32,000 bases of DNA from Candidatus Methylomirabilis limnetica (lineage in GTDB: Bacteria > Methylomirabilota > Methylomirabilia > Methylomirabilales > Methylomirabilaceae). Below the pieces are notes generated by a model. It did no database searches, was not told the origin of the DNA, and was given only the letters and a program-made list of their open reading frames with translations. Within the stretch, counting starts at the first letter, position 1, and the number at the start of each line of letters is the position of its first letter. Shown piece after piece: positions 1-13,799 of this stretch. Made by a program: the position numbers and the translations under genes. The stretch covers positions 60,001 to 92,000 of the forward strand of contig NZ_NVQC01000017.1 of NCBI RefSeq assembly GCF_003044035.1, written 5' to 3'.

Positions 1-1441
1 CTGTGTAGCGGGGCAGCGGCTGCGTAAAGTGCTGGGCAGGGGTCACATCGAGCAACCGCAACTGTTCCCCAACCTCGAGAGGAGGTATCGCTAATTCGGC
101 CTCTTCCTCGACGGCCGTCTCTTCAGCCGTTTCGTCCTTGGCCTCCGCCGGCTTGGTCTCTGACGCCTCATCCTTCCCCTCGATGTAGACCTGCATGAAT
201 CCGGCGAACCGCTGGTGCCGACCGCTTGCCCGAAGCGTGAACCGCCCACCCTGGATCGTAACAGTGGTTACGTCGTAGAGAGCCGGCGGCATCTGAGACG
301 CAACGAAGCGGTTCCAGATCAGGCTGTAGAGGGCGAGTTGATCCTTCGTAAGAAACCTACGGAGCGATGCCGGATCCCGATAGACTGAGGTCGGGCGAAC
401 CGCTTCGTGGGCTTCCTGGGCGCCACGGCCGCTGCGGTAGACCGGGGGCCGCTCGGGCACAAACGCCTGACCGAACCGTTCGGAGATATAGCGGGCCGCC
501 TCGGCCTGGGCTTCTCCAGAGACGCGGACCGAGTCAGTCCGCATGTAGGTGATAAGACCAACGGCGCCCTCCTCTCCGATCTCGATCCCTTCGTAGAGTT
601 GTTGAGCGATCTGCATCGCCCGCTTAGCTGTGAAGCGAAGCTTTCGGACGGATTCCTGCTGCAGCTTACTGGTCGTAAACGGCGGGACCGGGTTGCGACG
701 CTTCTCTTTCCTGGTCAGGTCCGCTACCTGATAGCTGACAGATGATAGCTGATCGCTAACAGCGTCGGTCTCCTCCTGATTAGACAGGTTCACCCGTTCG
801 CCGTCGATCTTATGGAGCCTTGCCACGAACGGCGGGGGGGTACGGCCTGCCAGGGAGACATCGACCGACCAGTACTCGGCCTTGACGAACGCCCTGATCT
901 CTCGATCTCGATCAACGATGAGACGAAGGGCTACCGACTGAACTCGGCCGGCAGAAATGCCGCGCTTCACCTTGTCCCAGAGGATCGGACTAATCTGGTA
1001 GCCAACCAGACGATCCAGAATCCTTCTGGTCTGTTGGGCATCCACCAGCCGCTGGTCTATTATGGACGGATGATTGAACGCCTCCTGCACCGCGTGCTTC
1101 GTAATCTCGTTGAAGGTCACGCGGTGGACAGGTTTCTTGGTAGCGCCAAGCTCCTGCTTGAGATGCCAGCAGATAGCCTCTCCCTCCCGATCCGGATCGG
1201 CCGCAAGATAGATGGCGTCAGCCGTCTTGGCCGCCTTCTTCAGGGCCGATACGACCTTCTCTCTGCCCACAATGATCTCGTACTGCGGGGCGAAGTCGTG
1301 CTCTACGTCAACGCTCAGCGACTTAGCGGGCAGATCGCGGACATGGCCCATCGAGGCCGTCACGACGAACGCCTCCCCGAGATATTTACCGATCGTTTTG
1401 GCCTTTGCAGGCGACTCGACAATCACTAATGACTTAGGCAC
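1..1441 (-). CDS. topA: DNA topoisomerase I, N-terminal ~480 aa; the 3' end runs off the left edge of the window
   Basis: My own minus-strand translation from GTG 1441..1439 (AAGGAGG about 11 nt upstream) gives VPKSLVIVESPAKAKTIGKYLGEAFVVTASMGHVRDLP...AADPDREGEAICWH...RILDRLVGYQISPILW, the Toprim/TopA signature. It is missing from the ORF track because it is edge-truncated. dprA-topA adjacency is common. Confidence 0.9.
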   Translation of the reverse strand, partial: MPKSLVIVESPAKAKTIGKYLGEAFVVTASMGHVRDLPAKSLSVDVEHDFAPQYEIIVGREKVVSALKKAAKTADAIYLAADPDREGEAICWHLKQELGATKKPVHRVTFNEITKHAVQEAFNHPSIIDQRLVDAQQTRRILDRLVGYQISPILWDKVKRGISAGRVQSVALRLIVDRDREIRAFVKAEYWSVDVSLAGRTPPPFVARLHKIDGERVNLSNQEETDAVSDQLSSVSYQVADLTRKEKRRNPVPPFTTSKLQQESVRKLRFTAKRAMQIAQQLYEGIEIGEEGAVGLITYMRTDSVRVSGEAQAEAARYISERFGQAFVPERPPVYRSGRGAQEAHEAVRPTSVYRDPASLRRFLTKDQLALYSLIWNRFVASQMPPALYDVTTVTIQGGRFTLRASGRHQRFAGFMQVYIEGKDEASETKPAEAKDETAEETAVEEEAELAIPPLEVGEQLRLLDVTPAQHFTQPLPRYT

Positions 1442-1465
1442 GCTCTGTTGTTCCTCCTTAAAGAC

Positions 1466-1556
1466 TAGGGTAGAGGGTATAGGGTTTAGGGTAAAGGATT
1501 ACGTAGGCGCCCCCTATACCCTCTACCCTGTACCCTAGATCCTATACCCTAGACCC
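1466..1556. repeat. 7-nt-periodic imperfect inverted repeat: G-tract arm TAGGGTAGAGGGTATAGGGTTTAGGGTAAAGG, ~14-nt spacer, C-tract arm CCTATACCCTCTACCCTGTACCCTAGATCCTATACCCTAGACCCTG
   Basis: Read directly. Units are NAGGGTA / TACCCTN. It lies between the dprA stop and the topA Shine-Dalgarno, and its right arm overlaps the last codons of the annotated dprA ORF. Confidence 0.85.
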
Positions 1557-2696
1557 TGCCCCGTGCGGGGGCCTGAGCCGCTTCGCAAAACTTTTCCCTG
1601 GTAGCTCCTCAATCATGCCCTTCAGCATCAGTGACAGCAGCAGTGAGGCCATCTGTCCGGCCGGAAGCTGAGTCCGGCCGATCAGGTCATCGATCTGCAT
1701 GGGCCCGGCCTCCATGGCATCAATGATCAGGATCTCTTCCTGCGCAAGGGAACGGCTGACAGGGGTCGGATCTCGCACGACCTGCGATCCAGGAGTCATC
1801 TGTAGCTCAATCTCCTCCAAGATATCCTCCCAGCCTTCCGTCAGTTTCGCACCCGCCTTGATAAGCTGGTGGCACCCGCGACTGGATCGGGATGTAACCT
1901 GCCCGGGAACAGCGAAGACTTCACGCCCCTGCTCTAGCGCGTAGTTAGCCGTTATCATAGCCCCGCTCTTCAGTCCGGCTTCAATCACCACTATACCGCG
2001 CGCCAGACCGCTGATGATCCGGTTACGCTGCGGGAAGTGTCCAGGCTTGGGCGGCGTGAAGATGGGAAACTCGCTGATCAGGGCGCCCTGTTCGGCAATC
2101 TGGTCGGCGAGTTCTGCGTGCTCGGGGGGATAGGTCACCCCAAGTCCGCATCCCAACACCGCAATGGTCCGGCCGGCAGCGCGCAGCGCGCTACGATGCG
2201 CTGCCGCATCTATTCCACGGGCCATTCCGCTCACGATCGTCACCCCGCGCTCTGCGAGCTCCCCGCTGATTTGCTCGGCCATTGCGCTACCGTACTGGCT
2301 GGCCTGTCGGGAACCGACAATCGCGACAGCCACCCGATCTTCCGGTTCAATTGTGCCCCGCACATAGAGAATCGGCGGAGGGGAATGGATGGCTGCCAGC
2401 AGCTCAGGGTACCCCTCGTCACCGAACCGTATGAGGCCGAGACCTCGTGTCTCGATCACTCGCAGCTCCCGGTCAAGGGCATCCTGCCAGGGAAAGGAGA
2501 CGATTGCTCGCGCGACCTGCTGGCTGATACCTGGAACCTGCTCGAGCGCCCCGGCCTTTGCCCTGAGCACGGCCTCGGCTGACCCAAGCCCCTGCACCAA
2601 GCGGTAAAACGTCGCCGCACCAACCTCGGGGATCAGACCGAGCGCCAACCAGGCATCTCGCTCTGTAGGACGTCCGTCGGTATTAGCCACCATCAA
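1542..2696 (-). CDS. dprA: DNA processing / recombination mediator protein DprA (Smf)
   Basis: ORF-track protein has the DprA Rossmann-like core (VAIVGSRQASQYG, GMARGIDAAAHRSAL, VLGCGLGVTYPPEH, FPQRNRIISGL) and a C-terminal winged-helix region. The last ~7 codons lie inside the repeat, so the true stop context is uncertain. Confidence 0.9.
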   Translation of the reverse strand: MMVANTDGRPTERDAWLALGLIPEVGAATFYRLVQGLGSAEAVLRAKAGALEQVPGISQQVARAIVSFPWQDALDRELRVIETRGLGLIRFGDEGYPELLAAIHSPPPILYVRGTIEPEDRVAVAIVGSRQASQYGSAMAEQISGELAERGVTIVSGMARGIDAAAHRSALRAAGRTIAVLGCGLGVTYPPEHAELADQIAEQGALISEFPIFTPPKPGHFPQRNRIISGLARGIVVIEAGLKSGAMITANYALEQGREVFAVPGQVTSRSSRGCHQLIKAGAKLTEGWEDILEEIELQMTPGSQVVRDPTPVSRSLAQEEILIIDAMEAGPMQIDDLIGRTQLPAGQMASLLLSLMLKGMIEELPGKSFAKRLRPPHGAGSRV

Positions 2697-2718
2697 ATAC
2701 CCCCTCAGCGTATCAGCA

Positions 2719-2838
2719 CAGGGTGTAGGGTGAAGGGTGTAAGGATCACGATGGAGAGTTGAGGATCCAGGGTTGAGGAGGTAGTGATATTTCGGGGTTG
2801 CCTTGTCCTAATACCCTACACCCTATACCCTAACCCTG
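2719..2838. repeat. 7-nt-periodic inverted repeat of the same family: left CAGGGTGTAGGGTGAAGGGTGTAAGG, ~60-nt spacer, right CCTAATACCCTACACCCTATACCCTAACCCTG
   Basis: Read directly, in the gap between the carboxypeptidase stop (2878) and the dprA start (2696). Confidence 0.8.
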
Positions 2839-2877
2839 GGGTGAGTGGAACTGCAGGCCAACGGCGGAGAGGTAGCC

Positions 2878-3930
2878 TCAGCCCCCTTCGCCTCTTGGCG
2901 TATCGGTAGAACCCCCATCGGAAACCCCAAGGCTGGGCGCCCGCCCGCCGAGGGCGGCAAAACCATACTCCAGCAGCGCTGCGGCCTCGGCCCACCGACG
3001 GGAATCGTTGAGGAGAACAGTGATCAGTCGATGGTCGCCCCGCGTAGCCGACGCTACGAGACAGCGACCAGCCTGTTCGGTATAGCCGGTCTTGACGCCA
3101 TCCGCACCGGCAAACTGTCCGAGAAGCTGATTATGGGTTCGAATCACCATCCGCTTTACCACCTTTCCGTTCCGCCCCGTCAGGATAGCGAGATGAGCCT
3201 CCCGGGTCTGCACCATACGGGCGAATGTCGGATTACGCAACGCCTGGCGGGCGAGGATCGCCAAGTCATAGGCGGTCGAGTAGTGATCCGGGTTGTCAAG
3301 TCCGTGGGGATTCGTAAAATGTGTTCCCTCCATCCCGAGAGAGCCCGCCTTCGCATTCATCCGGGAGACAAACCCCTCTTCGCTCCCGCCGATATGTTCG
3401 GCCGCCGCCAACGCGGCATCGTTCGCAGATTTGATCAGAATCGCCCACAATAGGTCTCTGAGCGTGATCTGCTGGCCGCGTCTGAGCCCAAGTCCAGTCC
3501 CCGTGACGGCAGCCGCCCGCTCAGTGATGACCACCTTCTCGTCCAGTCGCCCCTCCTCCAGGATGAGGAGCGCCGTCATGATCTTTGTGGTGCTGGCCGG
3601 GGAACGCCGCTCCATGTGATGCCTGGCAAACAGGATCGCGCCTGTGTCGGCATCCATCAACAGCGCTGACGCTGCACTTAACTGCTCAGGATCGGCCAGA
3701 AACCAGCCGAGGTCAGAGGTAGCGCCCCACCGATCTGTCTGCCGTGTCGGTACAGACAGATTCGCGGTGAGACTTATCCGTGTGCGACGCACAGGCAGGC
3801 TCGAAGCCGATGGTAGGGCAAGATCTTCTCGACCCCTCGCAGGGCGCGAAGACCTCGCCCAAGCCGGCATACTGGCGGCAAAGAGGATACTCAACGCGAT
3901 GAGAGCGACCCACTTCTTCCCTCTTTCCAT
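2878..3930 (-). CDS. Serine-type D-alanyl-D-alanine carboxypeptidase (peptidase S11, PBP5/6-like) with signal peptide
   Basis: Contains SxxK (PASTTKIMT), SxN (KSANDAA) and KTG (VKTGYT) motifs. The N-terminal signal peptide is MERGKKWVALIALSILFAASMPAWA. Confidence 0.88.
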   Translation of the reverse strand: MERGKKWVALIALSILFAASMPAWARSSRPARGREDLALPSASSLPVRRTRISLTANLSVPTRQTDRWGATSDLGWFLADPEQLSAASALLMDADTGAILFARHHMERRSPASTTKIMTALLILEEGRLDEKVVITERAAAVTGTGLGLRRGQQITLRDLLWAILIKSANDAALAAAEHIGGSEEGFVSRMNAKAGSLGMEGTHFTNPHGLDNPDHYSTAYDLAILARQALRNPTFARMVQTREAHLAILTGRNGKVVKRMVIRTHNQLLGQFAGADGVKTGYTEQAGRCLVASATRGDHRLITVLLNDSRRWAEAAALLEYGFAALGGRAPSLGVSDGGSTDTPRGEGG

Positions 3931-3944
3931 GAGTTCCCCTTTAT

Positions 3945-4550
3945 CTACGACGTGCCGAACAGATCGGTTTCAACCAGTTGACAGAGGGCGTGCCCAAGCG
4001 TCGCGTGGACTTCCTGTATCCTGGGTGTTGATCGAGAGGGGACCACGAATGCATAATCTGCCAGCCCGGCGAGCTTTCCCCCATCCCCGCCGGCGAACGC
4101 AACTGTACAGAGCTGCATCTTGCCTGCCGTTTCTATCCCGCACACGACACTGGAGGACTGGCCGCTGGTACTGATCCCAATGGCAACATCGCCGGCAGAG
4201 CCCAAGGCTTCAACCTGGCGCGCAAAGACCTGAGCGTAGTCCCGATCATTACTGATGCTGGTCAGAACGGTGCCATCGGTCGTCAGAGCGATGGCAGGTA
4301 GCGCCGGCCGATCGAGCAGGAAACGGTTCACGAGCTCACCTGCAATATGCTGGGCGTCGGCCGCACTTCCGCCGTTTCCGAAGATCAAGATCTTCCTTCC
4401 GGCCCGCAGGGCCTTCGCAATGGCTACCGCCACACGGACCACCAGGTCCAGGTGGCCTTCCAGGAAGGCTAGCTTGAGCTCAGCGCTCTCACGGAATATC
4501 GCCTCGGCAATGCCCCGATGCGAATGAGAGGTTCCGGGTTCAAGGTTCAA
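3945..4550 (-). CDS. gmhA: Phosphoheptose isomerase (SIS domain; D-sedoheptulose-7-phosphate isomerase)
   Basis: ILIFGNGGSAADAQHIAGEL, ALTTDGTVLTSISND and GISTSGQSSSV match the GmhA family. The only canonical start is TTG 4550..4548, which lies inside the heptamer array and has no obvious Shine-Dalgarno, so the start is uncertain. Confidence 0.85.
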   Translation of the reverse strand: MNLEPGTSHSHRGIAEAIFRESAELKLAFLEGHLDLVVRVAVAIAKALRAGRKILIFGNGGSAADAQHIAGELVNRFLLDRPALPAIALTTDGTVLTSISNDRDYAQVFARQVEALGSAGDVAIGISTSGQSSSVVCGIETAGKMQLCTVAFAGGDGGKLAGLADYAFVVPSRSTPRIQEVHATLGHALCQLVETDLFGTS

Positions 4551-4572
4551 GGTTCAAGGTTCCGGGTTCAAG
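4529..4572. repeat. Direct tandem array of six 7-nt units: AGGTTCC GGGTTCA AGGTTCA AGGTTCA AGGTTCC GGGTTCA
   Basis: Read directly. It spans the gmhA start codon and the first ~7 codons (MNLEPGTS is encoded by the repeat). Confidence 0.9.
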
Positions 4573-4767
4573 ACTAAAAAGCCGTTCCATGTCCCAGGTG
4601 GCATCTCACACCTCACAGGTCCACAGCGTGGAACGCGAAACCTGGCGTTTGGAACTGACAACTGTGTCGCACCAATCCCAGCCTTATTTGAGGTACTACC
4701 TTATGGCGAGTTGAGTTGTCAAGGGAAAAGACGAAGCGTACCCACATCGGGGGTCTGCGGCTTCCGT

Positions 4768-5706
4768 TTATCCCTTGACCTTGGCCTTGACGGGAGCTTT
4801 CAGCTTGGATCGCTCCCACGTACGCCACTCATAGACAATGGGGGAGGCTACAAACCAGGAAGAGTAGGTGCCAACGCAGACACCGGCGATCAGTGCAAGT
4901 GAAAAATCGTGGAGCACCTCCCCACCTAGCATGAAGAGGGCTAGCAAGACCAGGAGGACTGTGAGCGACGTCACAATAGTTCGGCTCAAGACCTCATTGA
5001 TACTCATGTTGATGACGTCTCCCAGCGATTCTTTCCGTCGGCCTTGAAGATTCTCACGGATCCGGTCGAAGACCACTACGGTATCTGTCAGCGAATATCC
5101 GGCGAGGGTGAGCAACGCAGTGATGATGAGGAGGGTGATCTCCCCGTTCAACACATAAAAAAACCCTAGAACAGCCAGGACATCATGCAGGGTGGCGATG
5201 GCCGCCGCTATCCCGAACTTGAACTCGAAGCGCCAGGCAATATAGGCGATGATGCCGATCATGGAAAAGGCAATAGCCCACAGAGCAGCTTTTTGGAGGT
5301 CCTTTCCTATGGCTGGCCCGACCTCATTCGTCCCCTCCACCACGAACGGATTATCAGGTAACCCTTTCGAGAAGATGTCCTGCACCCGCTGGGCCATTCC
5401 GGCCTGACTACCCTCTGCCCGCTTCAAGCGAACCATGATGCGGTCCCCACCGGCGAACTGCTGGGGCTCACTATCCTTCAGGCCACTCTCTGCCAGCAGC
5501 GTTCTGACCCGACCAAGATCTACCGGCTTGCTGAACTTGAGCTGAACAGAGGTGCCGCCGGCGAAGTCAATTCCGAGATTAGCCGCGCCGCGCCCGATCT
5601 GAATGATCGAGACAATTCCGAGAAGGCACAGAACTGCCGAAACCGTGAACGCAGTCCTCCGCCAGGCAACGAAATCGACCTTTGTCTTACCGAGAATCTC
5701 CATCAT
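4768..5706 (-). CDS. secF: Protein translocase subunit SecF
   Basis: GIDFAGGTSVQ, multiple C-terminal TM segments and FDRIRE are typical of SecF. The ORF track starts at GTG 5724, but that codon and the next five lie inside the hairpin repeat. ATG 5706 (MMEILGK...) is more plausible. Confidence 0.9.
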   Translation of the reverse strand: MMEILGKTKVDFVAWRRTAFTVSAVLCLLGIVSIIQIGRGAANLGIDFAGGTSVQLKFSKPVDLGRVRTLLAESGLKDSEPQQFAGGDRIMVRLKRAEGSQAGMAQRVQDIFSKGLPDNPFVVEGTNEVGPAIGKDLQKAALWAIAFSMIGIIAYIAWRFEFKFGIAAAIATLHDVLAVLGFFYVLNGEITLLIITALLTLAGYSLTDTVVVFDRIRENLQGRRKESLGDVINMSINEVLSRTIVTSLTVLLVLLALFMLGGEVLHDFSLALIAGVCVGTYSSWFVASPIVYEWRTWERSKLKAPVKAKVKG

Positions 5707-5710
5707 GGCT

Positions 5711-5780
5711 AGTTCATAGTTCACAGTTCATAGTTCAGGGAGTTTCTAACCACGAACCCTTGAACTATGAACTGTGAACT
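5711..5780. repeat. 7-nt-periodic hairpin: AGTTCAT AGTTCAC AGTTCAT AGTTCAG GG, 16-nt loop, CCCTTGAACTATGAACTGTGAACT; ~22-bp stem with one bulge
   Basis: Read directly. The reverse complement of 5757..5780 equals 5718..5740 apart from one extra A. It fills the gap between the secD stop (5784) and the secF ATG (5706). Confidence 0.9.
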
Positions 5781-5783
5781 TCC

Positions 5784-7379
5784 TTAGATGCTAAGGGTTT
5801 TCAGGTTCCACCGCTGGGTCATCCAGTCGTAGACTACCCTGGTCCCCGTCAATGCCGTCACCAGGTTGAAAATTACCCCGAGGCTCAGGGTGACCGCGAA
5901 GCCTTTCACCGGCCCCGTCCCGAACAAAAACAACGCAAACGCGGTAATCAACGTCGTCACATGGGAGTCGATAATGGTGAGGAAGGCTTTGTCGTAGCCC
6001 CCGTCAATGGCCGACCGGACCCCCTTCCCCAATCGGAGTTCTTCACGGATCCGCTCCAGGATCAGCACGTTCGAGTCCACCGCCATCCCGATTCCAAGGA
6101 TGATGCCCGCAATGCCGGGGAGCGTCAGCGTGGCCCTGAGGCTGGCCAAGGCCCCCACCAGCCAGATGAGATTTAAGAGCAGCGCAAAGTTGGCGATGAC
6201 CCCGGACAACCTGTAGTAGACCGCCATGAAGACAATGACGAGGGCGCCGCCTAAAATCGCGGCCCGCATACCCTTTTCGATGGAGTCCTGGCCCAACGAT
6301 GGACCAACCGTCAGATTCGAAATGATGTTGACGGGCGCGGGAAGCGCGCCGGCACGCAGCACGATCGCCAGATCTCTGGCCTCCTCCATGGTGAAGCTAC
6401 CGGAGATCTGGGCCTTGCCGCCGGGGATCTTCTCCCTGATGACCGGCGCCGAATAGATGGTGTCATCCAGAACGATGGCCATGCGTCGGCCGACGTTGGC
6501 CGCCGTGGCCTCGCCAAAGAGGCGGGTACCCTCCCGATCAAATGCGATCGAGACCACCGGCTGATTGGTCTGGCCCTCGATCTGTACCTGAGCCGAGGTG
6601 AGCAGATCACCCGTCAGGACGGCTCGCTTCTGCACGACAAGGGGGGTTTTACTCACATTTTCCCCCTCCTCCGTACGGCGTATATAGAGAAGCTCGCCGC
6701 CCTCCGGGACCTTTCCCGCCACAGCCTCAGCAATATTGGCATCCTCCGCCACCATCTTAAACTCCAGAAGGGCGGTCTTGCCGATCAGATTGATCGCCCG
6801 CTGCGGCTCCTTGATGCCTGGAAGCTGGACTATGATCCGTCGGTCCCCTTCCTGTATGATGTGAGGCTCGGCCACGCCAAACTGATCGACGCGATTCCGG
6901 ATGGTTTCCAGGCTCTGTTGAATAGTGGATTCCTGGATCCGCTTTATTTCACTCGATGTAAGGCTCAGGCTGAGTTCAGCCGGATCAGCCCCGCCGGACT
7001 GTTGCAGGTTACTATAGCTCTTCAGGATACGGCGCAAGCCATCCATACCTTCCTTCGCCTGAAGCCTGATTCTGATACGGTCGATCCCCTCGCGGGTCAT
7101 CTGCTCGACTGCGATCTTTTCCTTCTCGATTTCCCGGCGCAATTCGGTAATCAGCCGGTCAACGGTGTTTTCTACTGCCTTCTCGGTGACAACCTCAAGG
7201 ACCAGGTGCATCCCCCCCTGTAGATCGAGCCCAAGATTGAGCCGTTCAGCCCGCGGAAGCAACGGAGGCAATAGCGAAGGGAGTGACGACCGGCCTGATA
7301 GCGTGGGAAAGAGATAGTAGCCGGCTATCACCGTCACCAGCAGAAGGGAGAAGATCTTCCATCTTACGGTTTTTTTCAT
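5784..7379 (-). CDS. secD: Protein translocase subunit SecD
   Basis: 531 aa with an N-terminal TM, a large periplasmic domain (LGLDLQGGMHLVLEV) and C-terminal 5-TM SecD/SecF-type region (ILERIREE). It sits immediately upstream of secF. Confidence 0.93.
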   Translation of the reverse strand: MKKTVRWKIFSLLLVTVIAGYYLFPTLSGRSSLPSLLPPLLPRAERLNLGLDLQGGMHLVLEVVTEKAVENTVDRLITELRREIEKEKIAVEQMTREGIDRIRIRLQAKEGMDGLRRILKSYSNLQQSGGADPAELSLSLTSSEIKRIQESTIQQSLETIRNRVDQFGVAEPHIIQEGDRRIIVQLPGIKEPQRAINLIGKTALLEFKMVAEDANIAEAVAGKVPEGGELLYIRRTEEGENVSKTPLVVQKRAVLTGDLLTSAQVQIEGQTNQPVVSIAFDREGTRLFGEATAANVGRRMAIVLDDTIYSAPVIREKIPGGKAQISGSFTMEEARDLAIVLRAGALPAPVNIISNLTVGPSLGQDSIEKGMRAAILGGALVIVFMAVYYRLSGVIANFALLLNLIWLVGALASLRATLTLPGIAGIILGIGMAVDSNVLILERIREELRLGKGVRSAIDGGYDKAFLTIIDSHVTTLITAFALFLFGTGPVKGFAVTLSLGVIFNLVTALTGTRVVYDWMTQRWNLKTLSI

Positions 7380-7487
7380 GATGCTTTACCCGTCTCTTCA
7401 AGGGGACGCGGTGCCTCGGGAAACTCAGACGGCAAAATATACGGAAAAGCTCGTAAAAAAGCAATGGGAAAGTTCAAAGAGGTCGGC

Positions 7488-8962: not shown

Positions 8963-9094
8963 CAGGGTGGAGGGTATAGGGTATAGGGAAGGAAAGCGGA
9001 AAGAATGAAGGGATGAGTCCCGGTGGAATAACTTCGATTCGTACTGATCTTGAATACTGGACCCTCCACTCTCAACCCTCTACCCTAGCCCCTG
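8963..9094. repeat. 7-nt-periodic inverted repeat of the GGGTA family: left CAGGGTGGAGGGTATAGGGTATAGGG, ~70-nt spacer, right ACCCTCCACTCTCAACCCTCTACCCTAGCCCCTG
   Basis: Read directly, between the speE stop (9100) and the decarboxylase start (8951). The left arm carries four GGG tracts with 4-nt loops. Confidence 0.8.
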
Positions 9095-9099
9095 GCTTT

Positions 9100-10017
9100 T
9101 TAGTGGAAGGTAAAGAGGGGGTGGTTGTCCTCGATGATCCGCTTCTCTTCCTCAAGGTGCCGGCGCACATACTTTGGGAGGAGAAAAGACATCTGATGCG
9201 TAGGACCATCGTAATATCGCAGGTCAGGCCCGATCCGTTCGGCGATGAGGCGATCGATAGTATCCGGTCCCAGCGCTCGTGGGTCAGGCCGCTTGGAGGC
9301 CACGGCGAATCCCCAGGGAAGGGCAAAGCTGGGGACGCTGGCCCAGTAGGGGGCCACTACGGGGAACGCGGTCCGCAAGGTCTCGTGGATGGCGGTAAAA
9401 CAGGCCAGGTTGGAGAGACTGACCGAACCCGCTTGCAGCGCGATGATCCCCTGATCCGTCAGGCATCGGTGCACGATTTGATAAAACTCCCGCGTAAAGA
9501 GGAGATATGCCGGGCCCTCTTCAACCGGCTCCGAGATGTCGATGATGATCACATCGAACCGCTCGTCTGTCTCCTCCAAGTATCGTCTGGCATCAAGGAA
9601 GCGGAGCTCGGTGCGCGGATCGTCGAAGGCGCCCCTGTGCCATTCGGGCAGCAACTCCTTACACCGGGTGACAACCTCCTCATCGATATCGACCATCAGG
9701 GCCCGCTCCACAGTGGGATGGCGGAGGACCTCCCGCAATGTGGCCCCTTCCCCGCCGCCCACGATAAATACCTTTTTGGGCGCGGGATGACTGAACATTG
9801 CCGGATGGACTAATGTCTCGTGGTAGATGAACTCATCGAGGATACTCGACTGAACCTTATCGTCAAGGATAAGGGCCTTCCCGTAGCTGCCAAGCTCCAT
9901 GATATCGAGAGATTGAAAGGGGGTCTGCGTGGAAAATAGGACTCGTCGAATCCCGTGCAGATGCCCCTCCTCAGGGCTCAAGGCTTCAATGAACCAGCGA
10001 GAGTTCTTGATCGGCAT
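9100..10017 (-). CDS. speE: Spermidine synthase / polyamine aminopropyltransferase
   Basis: VFIVGGGEGATLREVLRH, VDIDEEVV and DVIIIDISEP are the SpeE AdoMet-fold motifs. ATG 10017 has GGAGAAGG 6 nt upstream; the ORF track extends to GTG 10041. Confidence 0.9.
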   Translation of the reverse strand: MPIKNSRWFIEALSPEEGHLHGIRRVLFSTQTPFQSLDIMELGSYGKALILDDKVQSSILDEFIYHETLVHPAMFSHPAPKKVFIVGGGEGATLREVLRHPTVERALMVDIDEEVVTRCKELLPEWHRGAFDDPRTELRFLDARRYLEETDERFDVIIIDISEPVEEGPAYLLFTREFYQIVHRCLTDQGIIALQAGSVSLSNLACFTAIHETLRTAFPVVAPYWASVPSFALPWGFAVASKRPDPRALGPDTIDRLIAERIGPDLRYYDGPTHQMSFLLPKYVRRHLEEEKRIIEDNHPLFTFH

Positions 10018-12801: not shown

Positions 12802-13799
12802 GATTTCCGTTGCACATCACGACGGATATGCTCAAACACCAGATTCGCCACGGGCTCAAAGGGAACACTCGATATCCGTTCGTCCTCATGCTCGAACCGC
12901 TGTACACTTGCAACCTGGCCTGTCTAGGCTGCGCCGTTGAGCGGCACACCGGGAAAATCGAGGATCGGTTGACGCTTCAGGAGTGCCTGAAGGCGGCGGA
13001 TGACTCTGGCGCTCCGGTCGTTTCGATCTGCGGCGGGGAGCCCACCATCTACCCTGAACTGAAAGGGTTGGTGGAGGGGATGATTGCCCGCAAGCGACAC
13101 GTTTACCTGTGTACCAACGGGTTGATGCTTGATCGAACCGTCTACGGCCTGATCGCACCGCACAATCGGCTCACTATCAACATCCATCTGGATGGACTTA
13201 GGCGAACCCACGACCAGGTCTGCGATAGGGAAGGTGTCTTCGATAAGGCGCTCGACATGATCAAGGAAGGCAAGCGGCTCGGCTACCGGGTGACGACAAA
13301 TACGACGGTCTTCAAGGAGACCGATCTTGACGAGATCGAGGCGCTGTGCCGCCTGCTGCGAGAGCACCAGGTAGATGGGATGCTCCTCTCGCCTGGGTAT
13401 AGCTATGCCTCAGCCGAGTCTGATTTCTTCCTGGCTCGCGAGGAGATCCACCAAAAGTTCCAAAAGGTTCTCGAACTGTCGAAACAGTATCGACTTATCT
13501 CCACCCCGATGTTCCTCGAATTTGCGGCCGGCCTGCGCGAGTACCCTTGCTCCCCGTGGAGTACTGTCACCTTTACCCCCGAAGGTTGGAGGGGGCCCTG
13601 CTATCTCATCGGGGAGAAATACTTCCGGACGTTTGAGGAGTTCTGGCAAGGCATGGATTGGGACTACTGGGAGTCCCGCCAGGACCGGCGCTGTTACAAC
13701 TGCAAGATGCACTCCGGCTTCGAGGCTTCTGTCGTCCGCGGGCTCCGAAACAGCCCGAAAGACATGCTCAGGATGGCCATCTGGAACTTTTTGGAGTAA
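12798..13799 (+). CDS. hpnH: Radical SAM adenosyl-hopene transferase
   Basis: RYPFVLMLEPLYTCNLACLGC (CxxxCxxC) plus a length and C-terminus typical of HpnH, directly upstream of shc. The ATG 12798 start has GGAG 7 nt upstream; the track ORF begins earlier, at 12729. Confidence 0.88.
   Translation: MRFPLHITTDMLKHQIRHGLKGNTRYPFVLMLEPLYTCNLACLGCAVERHTGKIEDRLTLQECLKAADDSGAPVVSICGGEPTIYPELKGLVEGMIARKRHVYLCTNGLMLDRTVYGLIAPHNRLTINIHLDGLRRTHDQVCDREGVFDKALDMIKEGKRLGYRVTTNTTVFKETDLDEIEALCRLLREHQVDGMLLSPGYSYASAESDFFLAREEIHQKFQKVLELSKQYRLISTPMFLEFAAGLREYPCSPWSTVTFTPEGWRGPCYLIGEKYFRTFEEFWQGMDWDYWESRQDRRCYNCKMHSGFEASVVRGLRNSPKDMLRMAIWNFLE

Follow-up and report, generated by a model that had tools for sequence, protein, structure and literature searches.

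Heptameric tandem repeats are reportedly the commonest long simple-sequence repeats (SSRs) of bacteria. As summarized by citing papers, heptanucleotides form the most abundant class of long SSRs and possibly arise from polymerase slippage (Mrazek, 2007). The closest described systems are the G-rich heptameric SSRs of Xanthomonas (units GGGAATC/(GGGANTN)n, 186 and 183 arrays) and Nostoc (unit GGGGA(C/T)T), which are over-represented in the gaps that separate aligned open reading frames (ORFs) (Rehm et al., 2015, PLoS One 10:e0144275, PMC4692102). Their G-rich strand is the coding strand where an array lies ≤50 bp after a stop codon, and the non-coding strand where it lies ≤50 bp before a start codon; four units are preferred, and many arrays form convergent plus/minus pairs, i.e., inverted repeats, with 70 pairs in Xcc. 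Circular dichroism spectroscopy revealed that repeat oligonucleotides form K+-dependent G-quadruplexes (G4) and i-motifs in vitro, and competition between stem-loop and G4 was proposed as possible by the authors. Furthermore, transcription of both strands was reported, 83% of the positions were conserved between Xcc and Xac with variable length, and no function, no link to gene function and no association with insertion sequences (IS) or transposons was identified (PMC4692102). Herein, a stretch of 32,000 nucleotides from Candidatus Methylomirabilis limnetica, of the phylum NC10 (contig NZ_NVQC01000017.1, positions 60,001 to 92,000; the window), is described, in which intergenic hairpins built from heptamers of the unit AGGGTNN lie at three gene junctions, first of all between dprA and topA. 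These elements are convergent heptameric SSR pairs of the published kind, which they match in every positional and architectural respect. The class itself is thus already in the literature, contrary to a sequence-only reading of the window that had found no described repeat family to place them in. New are the unit and the host phylum, the finding that, among close relatives, one orthologous gap may lack an element altogether or contain a G-rich or a non-G-rich heptamer hairpin, and a G-first order of the arms in 32 of 33 pairs from a sample of more than ten phyla, including units incapable of forming quadruplexes.

Hairpin repeats between genes are also familiar from the repetitive extragenic palindromic (REP) and BIME elements of enterobacteria, which are intergenic, often lie within operons and can stabilize upstream mRNA or modulate downstream expression; REPs are mobilized by RAYT transposases and derive from a single imperfect palindrome, conserved among the copies and ~35 nt long. 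The elements of the window, in contrast, have no conserved palindromic unit and consist of variable tandem 7-mers around unrelated spacers. The human 2q13 head-to-head telomere fusion, (TTAGGG)n-(CCCTAA)m, likewise places a G-rich tandem array before its complement. This analogy concerns topology and strand polarity only. The units here are 7 nt long and heterogeneous, and no evidence of either fusion or end-addition is known for bacteria; the resemblance to plant telomeres pointed out in the sequence-only reading comes down to one incidental GGGTTTAGGG. Finally, TAACTGA heptamers occur as direct repeats upstream of start codons in marine Beggiatoaceae, cyanobacteria and Bacteroidetes (MacGregor, 2015, PMC4679880). 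They share with the present elements the intergenic position, the tandem heptamers (2-6 units), the orientation bias and the frequent placement a few nt before a start codon, and are scattered across the phylogeny, but unlike the hairpins described here they are not G-rich and are nearly always direct (one inverted set among 170). The STRR heptamers of Calothrix, known here through a citing paper, are grouped with the TAACTGA repeats.

Heptamer hairpins at gene junctions of the window

All three AGGGTNN elements (1466-1557, 2719-2838 and 8963-9094) lie between minus-strand genes and, read on the plus strand, share one layout, namely (NNAGGGT)4-5, a spacer and (ACCCTNN)4-7. The sequence-only reading had located them correctly, and was also right about their architecture, their position between genes of one co-directional array and the multiple pairing registers. 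Its unit formula, NAGGGTR, captured the tandem heptamers but was inexact, as one unit reads TAGGGTT; the unit at the three loci is (T/G/A)AGGGT(A/T/C), i.e., GGGTNNA. With at most one mismatch, AGGGTNNAGGGT matches the window 24 times, compared with 1.48 ± 1.15 matches in dinucleotide shuffles, which is ~16 times chance and a count reached by none of 100 shuffles. All but two of the matches fall inside the three loci, the others being lone single matches at 13044 and 22826. In addition, Tandem Repeats Finder (TRF) calls period-7 arrays on both arms. The spacers measure about 12-18 nt at the first locus, 66-71 nt at the second and 71 nt at the third, in agreement with the earlier description.

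In the dprA-topA gap, the plus-strand G-rich arm (1466-1499) consists of TAGGGTA, GAGGGTA, TAGGGTT and TAGGGTA followed by a degenerate AAGGAT unit, and corresponds to the 3' C-rich arm of the mRNA. The loop (1500-1510) is kept in the orthologues of three relatives (L125, L126 and L064, introduced below). The plus-strand C-rich arm (1511-1557) has six to seven ACCCTNN units and becomes the 5' G-rich arm of the mRNA; it contains the final dprA codons and the dprA stop codon TAG (1542-1544). At its other end the hairpin stops 6 nt from the Shine-Dalgarno sequence of topA (AAGGAGG, 1453-1459, minus strand; start codon GTG, 1441-1439), so that both the overlap with dprA and the proximity to the topA signal reported earlier are borne out. 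Over 27 nt (1465-1491 with 1512-1538), the arms are 89% complementary, with a perfect core of 18 nt, and folds of the junction place the Shine-Dalgarno sequence and start codon of topA outside the hairpin, with most of their bases predicted to be unpaired.

The two other junctions follow the same pattern. Between the S11 D-Ala-D-Ala carboxypeptidase gene and dprA, the G-rich arm (plus strand, 2719-2746) has three to four units with three G3 tracts only and stops 26 nt short of the dprA ATG (2693), whereas the C-rich arm (2811-2838; four units, one with a 1-nt deletion) begins 37-40 nt downstream of the carboxypeptidase stop codon (2878-2880); 26 nt (2720-2745 with 2806-2831) are 85% complementary. 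Between the spermidine synthase gene speE and the Orn/Lys/Arg decarboxylase gene, the G-rich arm (8963-8991, four units) ends 12 nt upstream of the decarboxylase ATG (8951), and the C-rich arm (9060-9098, five units, two of them degenerate) starts 1-6 nt after the speE stop codon (9100-9102), with 76% complementarity over 25 nt (8964-8988 with 9062-9086). The NN positions are only partly complementary between the two arms. In mRNA sense, the distance from stop codon to G arm is thus 0, 37-40 and 1-6 nt at the three loci in turn, and that from C arm to start codon 23, 26 and 12 nt.

A fourth hairpin, missed by the sequence-only reading, fills the gap between the secD stop codon (5784-5786) and the secF ATG (5706). 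It spans 5709-5781 and consists of (TAGTTCA)4, a 21-nt loop and (TGAACTN)3; its AGTTCAN/NTGAACT units are devoid of G-tracts. As judged from Pfam and from gene calls on identical public contigs, the hairpins lie in a single minus-strand gene array that runs, in transcription order, speE, Orn/Lys/Arg decarboxylase, secD, secF, an SIS-domain gene, S11 D-Ala-D-Ala carboxypeptidase, dprA and topA. All four separate co-directional genes, at 0-40 nt from the upstream stop codon and 4-26 nt from the downstream start codon, and they occupy four of the five gaps of the array longer than 50 nt; the fifth is without a repeat.

Folding of both strands, proposed as a check along with the sequence-only reading, gave strong hairpins of -37 to -60 kcal/mol at all four elements. 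The minimum free energies (MFE) as RNA in mRNA sense and antisense, respectively, are -49.8 and -50.1 kcal/mol for dprA-topA, -47.5 and -60.2 kcal/mol for carboxypeptidase-dprA, -47.2 and -51.1 kcal/mol for speE-decarboxylase, and -37.1 and -40.3 kcal/mol for secD-secF. For the dprA-topA element, the RNA fold corresponds to z = -3.3, none of 200 dinucleotide shuffles folds as well, and the DNA fold reaches -21.4 kcal/mol (z = -3.2). An intrinsic (Rho-independent) terminator was rejected, as no T run (U tract in the RNA) follows the stems and a terminator scan returned no match at the four hairpins. Searches of Rfam at the gathering score matched nothing at the hairpins and only tRNA in the window, and at E ≤ 1 merely generic miRNA-precursor look-alikes appeared (24-27 bits against thresholds of 90-100).

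Compared point by point, the elements share with the repeats of Rehm et al. the tandem 7-nt units with a G3-4 tract (here 4-5 units in the G-rich and 4-7 in the C-rich arm, plus strand), the location in gaps between aligned ORFs (at all three loci and at the fourth hairpin), the G-rich strand as coding strand ≤50 bp after stop codons and as non-coding strand ≤50 bp before start codons, and a conserved position with variable unit number and sequence. Convergent pairing is also common to both, being found in 3 of 3 elements of the window and in 23 of 23 other pairs among the matches listed in the wider scan described below. The unit, GGGTNNA instead of GGGAATC or GGGGAYT, and the NC10 host set them apart as a different sequence family of the same class, as does the non-G-rich heptamer AGTTCAN, which builds the same hairpin design in the same operon. 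The Rehm repeats amount to ~100-200 arrays per genome and their G4 were shown in vitro (PMC4692102). The 32 kb of the source genome covered here hold 8 arrays, and G4 of the AGGGTNN arms are predicted by a model. Literature searches for exact unit strings (TAGGGTATAGGGTA, AGGGTTCAGGGTTC and others) returned unrelated primer sequences only, and no description of the AGGGTNN unit or of repeats in Methylomirabilis was found.

Turnover in relatives and arm order across phyla

Comparison of orthologous gaps, another check proposed earlier, covered the 32 kb of the source genome and ~70 kb from relatives, namely five close or moderately close NC10 genomes retrieved with DprA in a metagenome scan (L125-L129) and one from a genome scan (L064). 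Their DprA identity to the window ranges from 73 to 95%; five distant DprA homologues were not used, and the Logan contigs L001-L004, being 100% identical to the window, are uninformative on strain variation. The dprA-topA gap holds a hairpin with 4-12 units per arm in four genomes (the window, L125, L126 and L064; DprA identity 76-95%), whereas L127 retains one arm of six units and L129 1.5 units. Thus, the position of this element is kept among four genomes while its unit number varies. Elsewhere turnover is fast. Hairpins occupy the speE-decarboxylase gap of the window, of L125 and of L126, with orthologous arms and a centre that is unalignable in L125. In the secD-secF gap, the AGTTCAN hairpin of the window is replaced by an AGGGT hairpin in L125, by an unrelated 133-nt palindromic repeat in L126 and by a bare 18-nt gap in L128, and the carboxypeptidase-dprA hairpin is confined to the window among the compared genomes. 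Altogether, arms or entire elements are gained, lost and replaced among relatives, and unit number shifts quickly.

Two features of L126 deserve separate mention. Its speE-decarboxylase gap (160-335) contains two tandem heptamer hairpins, arranged as C-arm, 9 nt, G-arm, spacer and C-arm, which points to local duplication of the element. In addition, two copies, 99% identical, of a palindrome-rich element of ~133 nt (1-95 and 3514-3646) lie one in the secD-secF gap and the other adjoining the speE-decarboxylase heptamer hairpin; judged by its sequence, this looks like a genuine small mobile element targeting the gaps that hold heptamer hairpins.

To place the unit more widely, one genome per species was scanned for four AGGGTNN units. 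This sample, in which the source genome is not among the loci listed, yielded at least 120 loci in Acidobacteriota, Planctomycetota, Bacteroidota, Chloroflexota, Cyanobacteriota, Myxococcota, Desulfobacterota, Elusimicrobiota, Patescibacteria, NC10 and others. Among the matches listed, one-armed arrays form the majority outside the window, and a G-array and a C-array lie ≤300 nt apart in 23 loci from more than ten phyla. Coming from the flanking gene, the G-rich strand always enters the gap in 5' to 3' direction, and the order on either strand is hence G-arm, spacer, C-arm. Together with the three window elements, 26 of 26 AGGGT pairs among those listed show this order and none the reverse.

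The same order emerged from a unit-agnostic search of the assembled sequence sample, in which the first arm has more G than C in 32 of 33 heptamer pairs. Among pairs built from units other than AGGGT, 11 of 12 obey it, including several without any G3 run (GATGTAC, AAATTGA, CAGAGTC and GGTTTTC); the sole exception is the near skew-free TAGTTCA hairpin of the window. Arm order is therefore nearly invariant and independent of G4 capacity. Single arrays point the same way: by crude ORF calls, the 5' side of the G strand is the one nearer to an ORF 43 times against 21 (p = 0.008), at a median distance of 28 against 132 nt. The period is also specific, with 23 period-7 arrays in the NC10 loci and none for each of periods 8-11, and some loci (e.g., L107) carry their unit variants in mirrored order on the two arms.

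Two further observations concern the distribution itself. In many matches, AGGGT-heptamer arrays stand exactly at contig ends (L119 at both ends, L097, L111, L007, L038 and L089), probably as assembly break points caused by the repeats, so that draft genomes under-count them. Furthermore, chromosome II of Aliivibrio fischeri ES114, a cultivable and well-studied organism, carries a 16-unit AGGGTNN array (L036, 5668-5777), which is a possible experimental handle for this unit.

A proposed self-folding spacer and its alternatives

Taken together, turnover and the wider arm-order rule shift attention from G4 chemistry to arm polarity and self-folding. On balance, and with modest confidence, we favour the explanation that the elements are slippage-made repeats tolerated as self-folding intercistronic spacers, with G4 formation not their defining property. 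According to this proposal, arrays would arise and change by replication slippage, would be transcribed as part of the polycistronic mRNA, and would persist because the self-complementary pair acts as a compact spacer that is tolerated and perhaps mildly useful. The base of the hairpin would hold the upstream stop codon near the downstream ribosome-binding site. The C-rich, G-poor arm, otherwise an ideal Rho-loading RNA, would be made last, paired at once and never exposed, and the RNA before the start codon would be left C-rich instead of G-rich. The expected effect would be modulatory and REP-like, as a barrier to 3' to 5' decay with some gating of downstream initiation, and the element would be dispensable at any single locus. 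The part that the sequence-only reading had suggested, a REP-like one in mRNA processing, 3' stabilization or the control of translational coupling, is plausible. G4 folding of an arm may occur, but would neither define nor maintain the element. Should the polarity truly reflect constraints from Rho and ribosomes, the elements would offer a natural read-out of the sequence tolerated at cistron junctions. An alternative purpose, that TAG-containing units stop any reading frame within three units, was considered and rejected as a general rule, since a GGGAATC array is free of stop codons whichever strand is read.

Several points weigh against the spacer explanation. We infer transcription through the elements, the hairpin in vivo and the effects on mRNA stability and coupling, and the Rho and ribosome account of arm order is likewise the authors' own inference; that order could instead stem from a biased generating mechanism. 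Sense and antisense strands fold equally well, with no G·U signature specific to an RNA-level function, and folding consequently does not discriminate the strand on which a function would act. All 8 arrays of the window lie within its first 10 kb, and the other 22 kb, including the second half from which the sequence-only reading had rightly reported none, are without an array. Finally, turnover, one-armed variants and empty orthologous gaps fit the absence of any function equally well.

The last of these points leads to the strongest competitor, in which the arrays are a neutral by-product, debris of slippage and template switching, and both the G-first order and the anchoring at gene ends come from a bias in their generation instead of selection on RNA. 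Gain, loss and replacement are indeed rapid at >90% protein identity, as the empty 18-nt gap of L128 and the one-armed or absent arrays of L127 and L129 illustrate; the partial complementarity of the NN positions and the equal folding of both strands also speak for a neutral origin, and Rehm et al. likewise found no link to gene function (PMC4692102). However, pairs from unrelated units and phyla keep this order in 32 of 33 cases, which, combined with adjacency to stop and start codons, requires a strong filter of some kind. Conservation speaks to the same effect, with the dprA-topA element holding its position across 76-95% DprA identity and 83% of positions being shared between Xcc and Xac (PMC4692102). 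We consider a purely neutral origin rather unlikely.

Improbable is a switch in which the G-rich arm, as DNA or nascent RNA, forms a K+-dependent G4 or i-motif that competes with the hairpin and regulates transcription, translation or processing. The competition itself was a legitimate idea of the sequence-only reading, already voiced for Xanthomonas (Rehm et al., 2015), where the analogous repeats, like those of Nostoc, form G4 and i-motifs in vitro and favour four units (PMC4692102). Since the G arm is always made first, it could also fold before its partner exists. That each arm carries a four-tract quadruplex motif holds for most arms, 4 of 6 having ≥4 G3 tracts with 3-4 nt loops, but not for all, given the three tracts of the plus-strand arm at carboxypeptidase-dprA and the interrupted sense arm at speE-decarboxylase. 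In isolation, 4 of the 6 arms give a three-tetrad G4 of -8 to -13 kcal/mol in the model and 2 give none. With both arms present, the MFE structure contains no G4 even if the model permits one; a long, bulged hairpin is predicted as the ground state, much more stable than any G4, by ~35-40 kcal/mol in the model. Also against G4 capacity as the core property are the elements that lack it. The AGTTCAN hairpin has the same design in the same operon, its orthologous secD-secF gap in the sister genome L125 holds an AGGGT hairpin in its place, and in other phyla the GATGTAC, AAATTGA, CAGAGTC and GGTTTTC hairpins keep the same G-first arm order without G3 runs.

The constancy of the polarity could also be read as the mark of an active polar process, whether templated 3' addition with head-to-head joining or strand-specific fold-back synthesis, that shapes a pan-bacterial class of convergent heptamer arrays in place of passive slippage with selection. 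We regard this broad claim as very improbable.

Even less credence can be given to a mobile element of the MITE (miniature inverted-repeat transposable element) or REP type, in which the heptamer arrays would be transposase-bound terminal inverted repeats, a role that would set the order of the arms and account for insertions in different gaps. Presence/absence polymorphism, different elements in the same gap of close relatives and the fixed inverted topology would suit such an origin, and the repeated 133-nt palindromic element in the gaps of L126 implies that mobile elements do target these sites. The spacers of non-orthologous hairpins have no common sequence, however, and filled gaps set beside the empty one of L128 reveal no target-site duplication or sharp conserved terminus; the elements do not, therefore, behave as copies of one mobile unit, and a MITE, for which neither a common core nor defined termini were seen, was rejected. 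In addition, unit number varies continuously from 4 to 12, as slippage predicts, one-armed arrays are the majority elsewhere among the matches listed, and Rehm et al. reported no association with IS or transposons (PMC4692102). Barely credible, finally, is a templated, telomerase- or reverse-transcriptase-like activity that would extend the 3' ends at breaks or stalled ends by G-rich heptamers, the two extended ends then being joined head to head. The polarity is exactly that of two meeting G-strand 3' extensions, as in a telomere-telomere fusion, and the speE-decarboxylase hairpins of the window and L125 have conserved arms around unalignable centres. However, neighbouring loci differ in unit (AGGGTNN, AGTTCAN, AGGTTCA), which one template explains poorly; the mirrored order of unit variants in L107 is more in line with selection or an inverted duplication than with arms extended independently; and no enzyme candidate turned up, none having been looked for.

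Other features of the gene array

A one-armed array, (AGGTTCA/GGGTTCC)6, also overlooked in the sequence-only reading, occupies 4529-4572, where it overlaps the annotated start of the SIS-domain gene and continues just upstream. With its non-coding strand rich in G, it fits the orientation rule, the RNA right before the start codon being C-rich, and it resembles the TAACTGA repeats (PMC4679880). Shorter versions are present in L125 and L128, which leaves the true start codon and the 5' untranslated region of the SIS-domain gene uncertain.

In the secF-SIS gap further upstream, a block on the minus strand at ~4690-4725, CTTTTCCCTTGACAACTC...TA(A/T)(G/A)GTAGTACCTC, is kept in all relatives from L125 to L129, even at 73% DprA identity. 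By sequence, CTTTTCCCTTGACAACTC...GTAGTACCTC looks like a promoter of the TTGACA / TATAGT type for an operon of the SIS-domain gene, carboxypeptidase, dprA and topA. In L127, secF and the SIS-domain gene are separated by 5.9 kb of inserted DNA (937-6862), in which several small ORFs with a cysteine-rich, secreted-looking product and toxin-antitoxin-like genes can be recognized in the raw sequence. The decarboxylase-secD gap (7380-7487), 108 nt without repeats, is near-identical in the window, L125 and L126; this conservation is unusually high for non-coding sequence, and the gap may represent a leader or regulatory element.

Within the topA coding region, 728-757 form an imperfect period-7 stretch, CTGATAG CTGACAG ATGATAG CTGATCG (TRF score 39, 78% matches). 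With only 3 copies of GCGATCGC, the HIP1 octamer of cyanobacteria, the window does not look like typical cyanobacterial DNA, and exact protein matches point to Candidatus Methylomirabilis limnetica, whose assembly carries PTL36131.1. Finally, CGATCG is present 34 times, where base composition alone would give ~10, an excess that may reflect a restriction-modification or methylation-linked bias.

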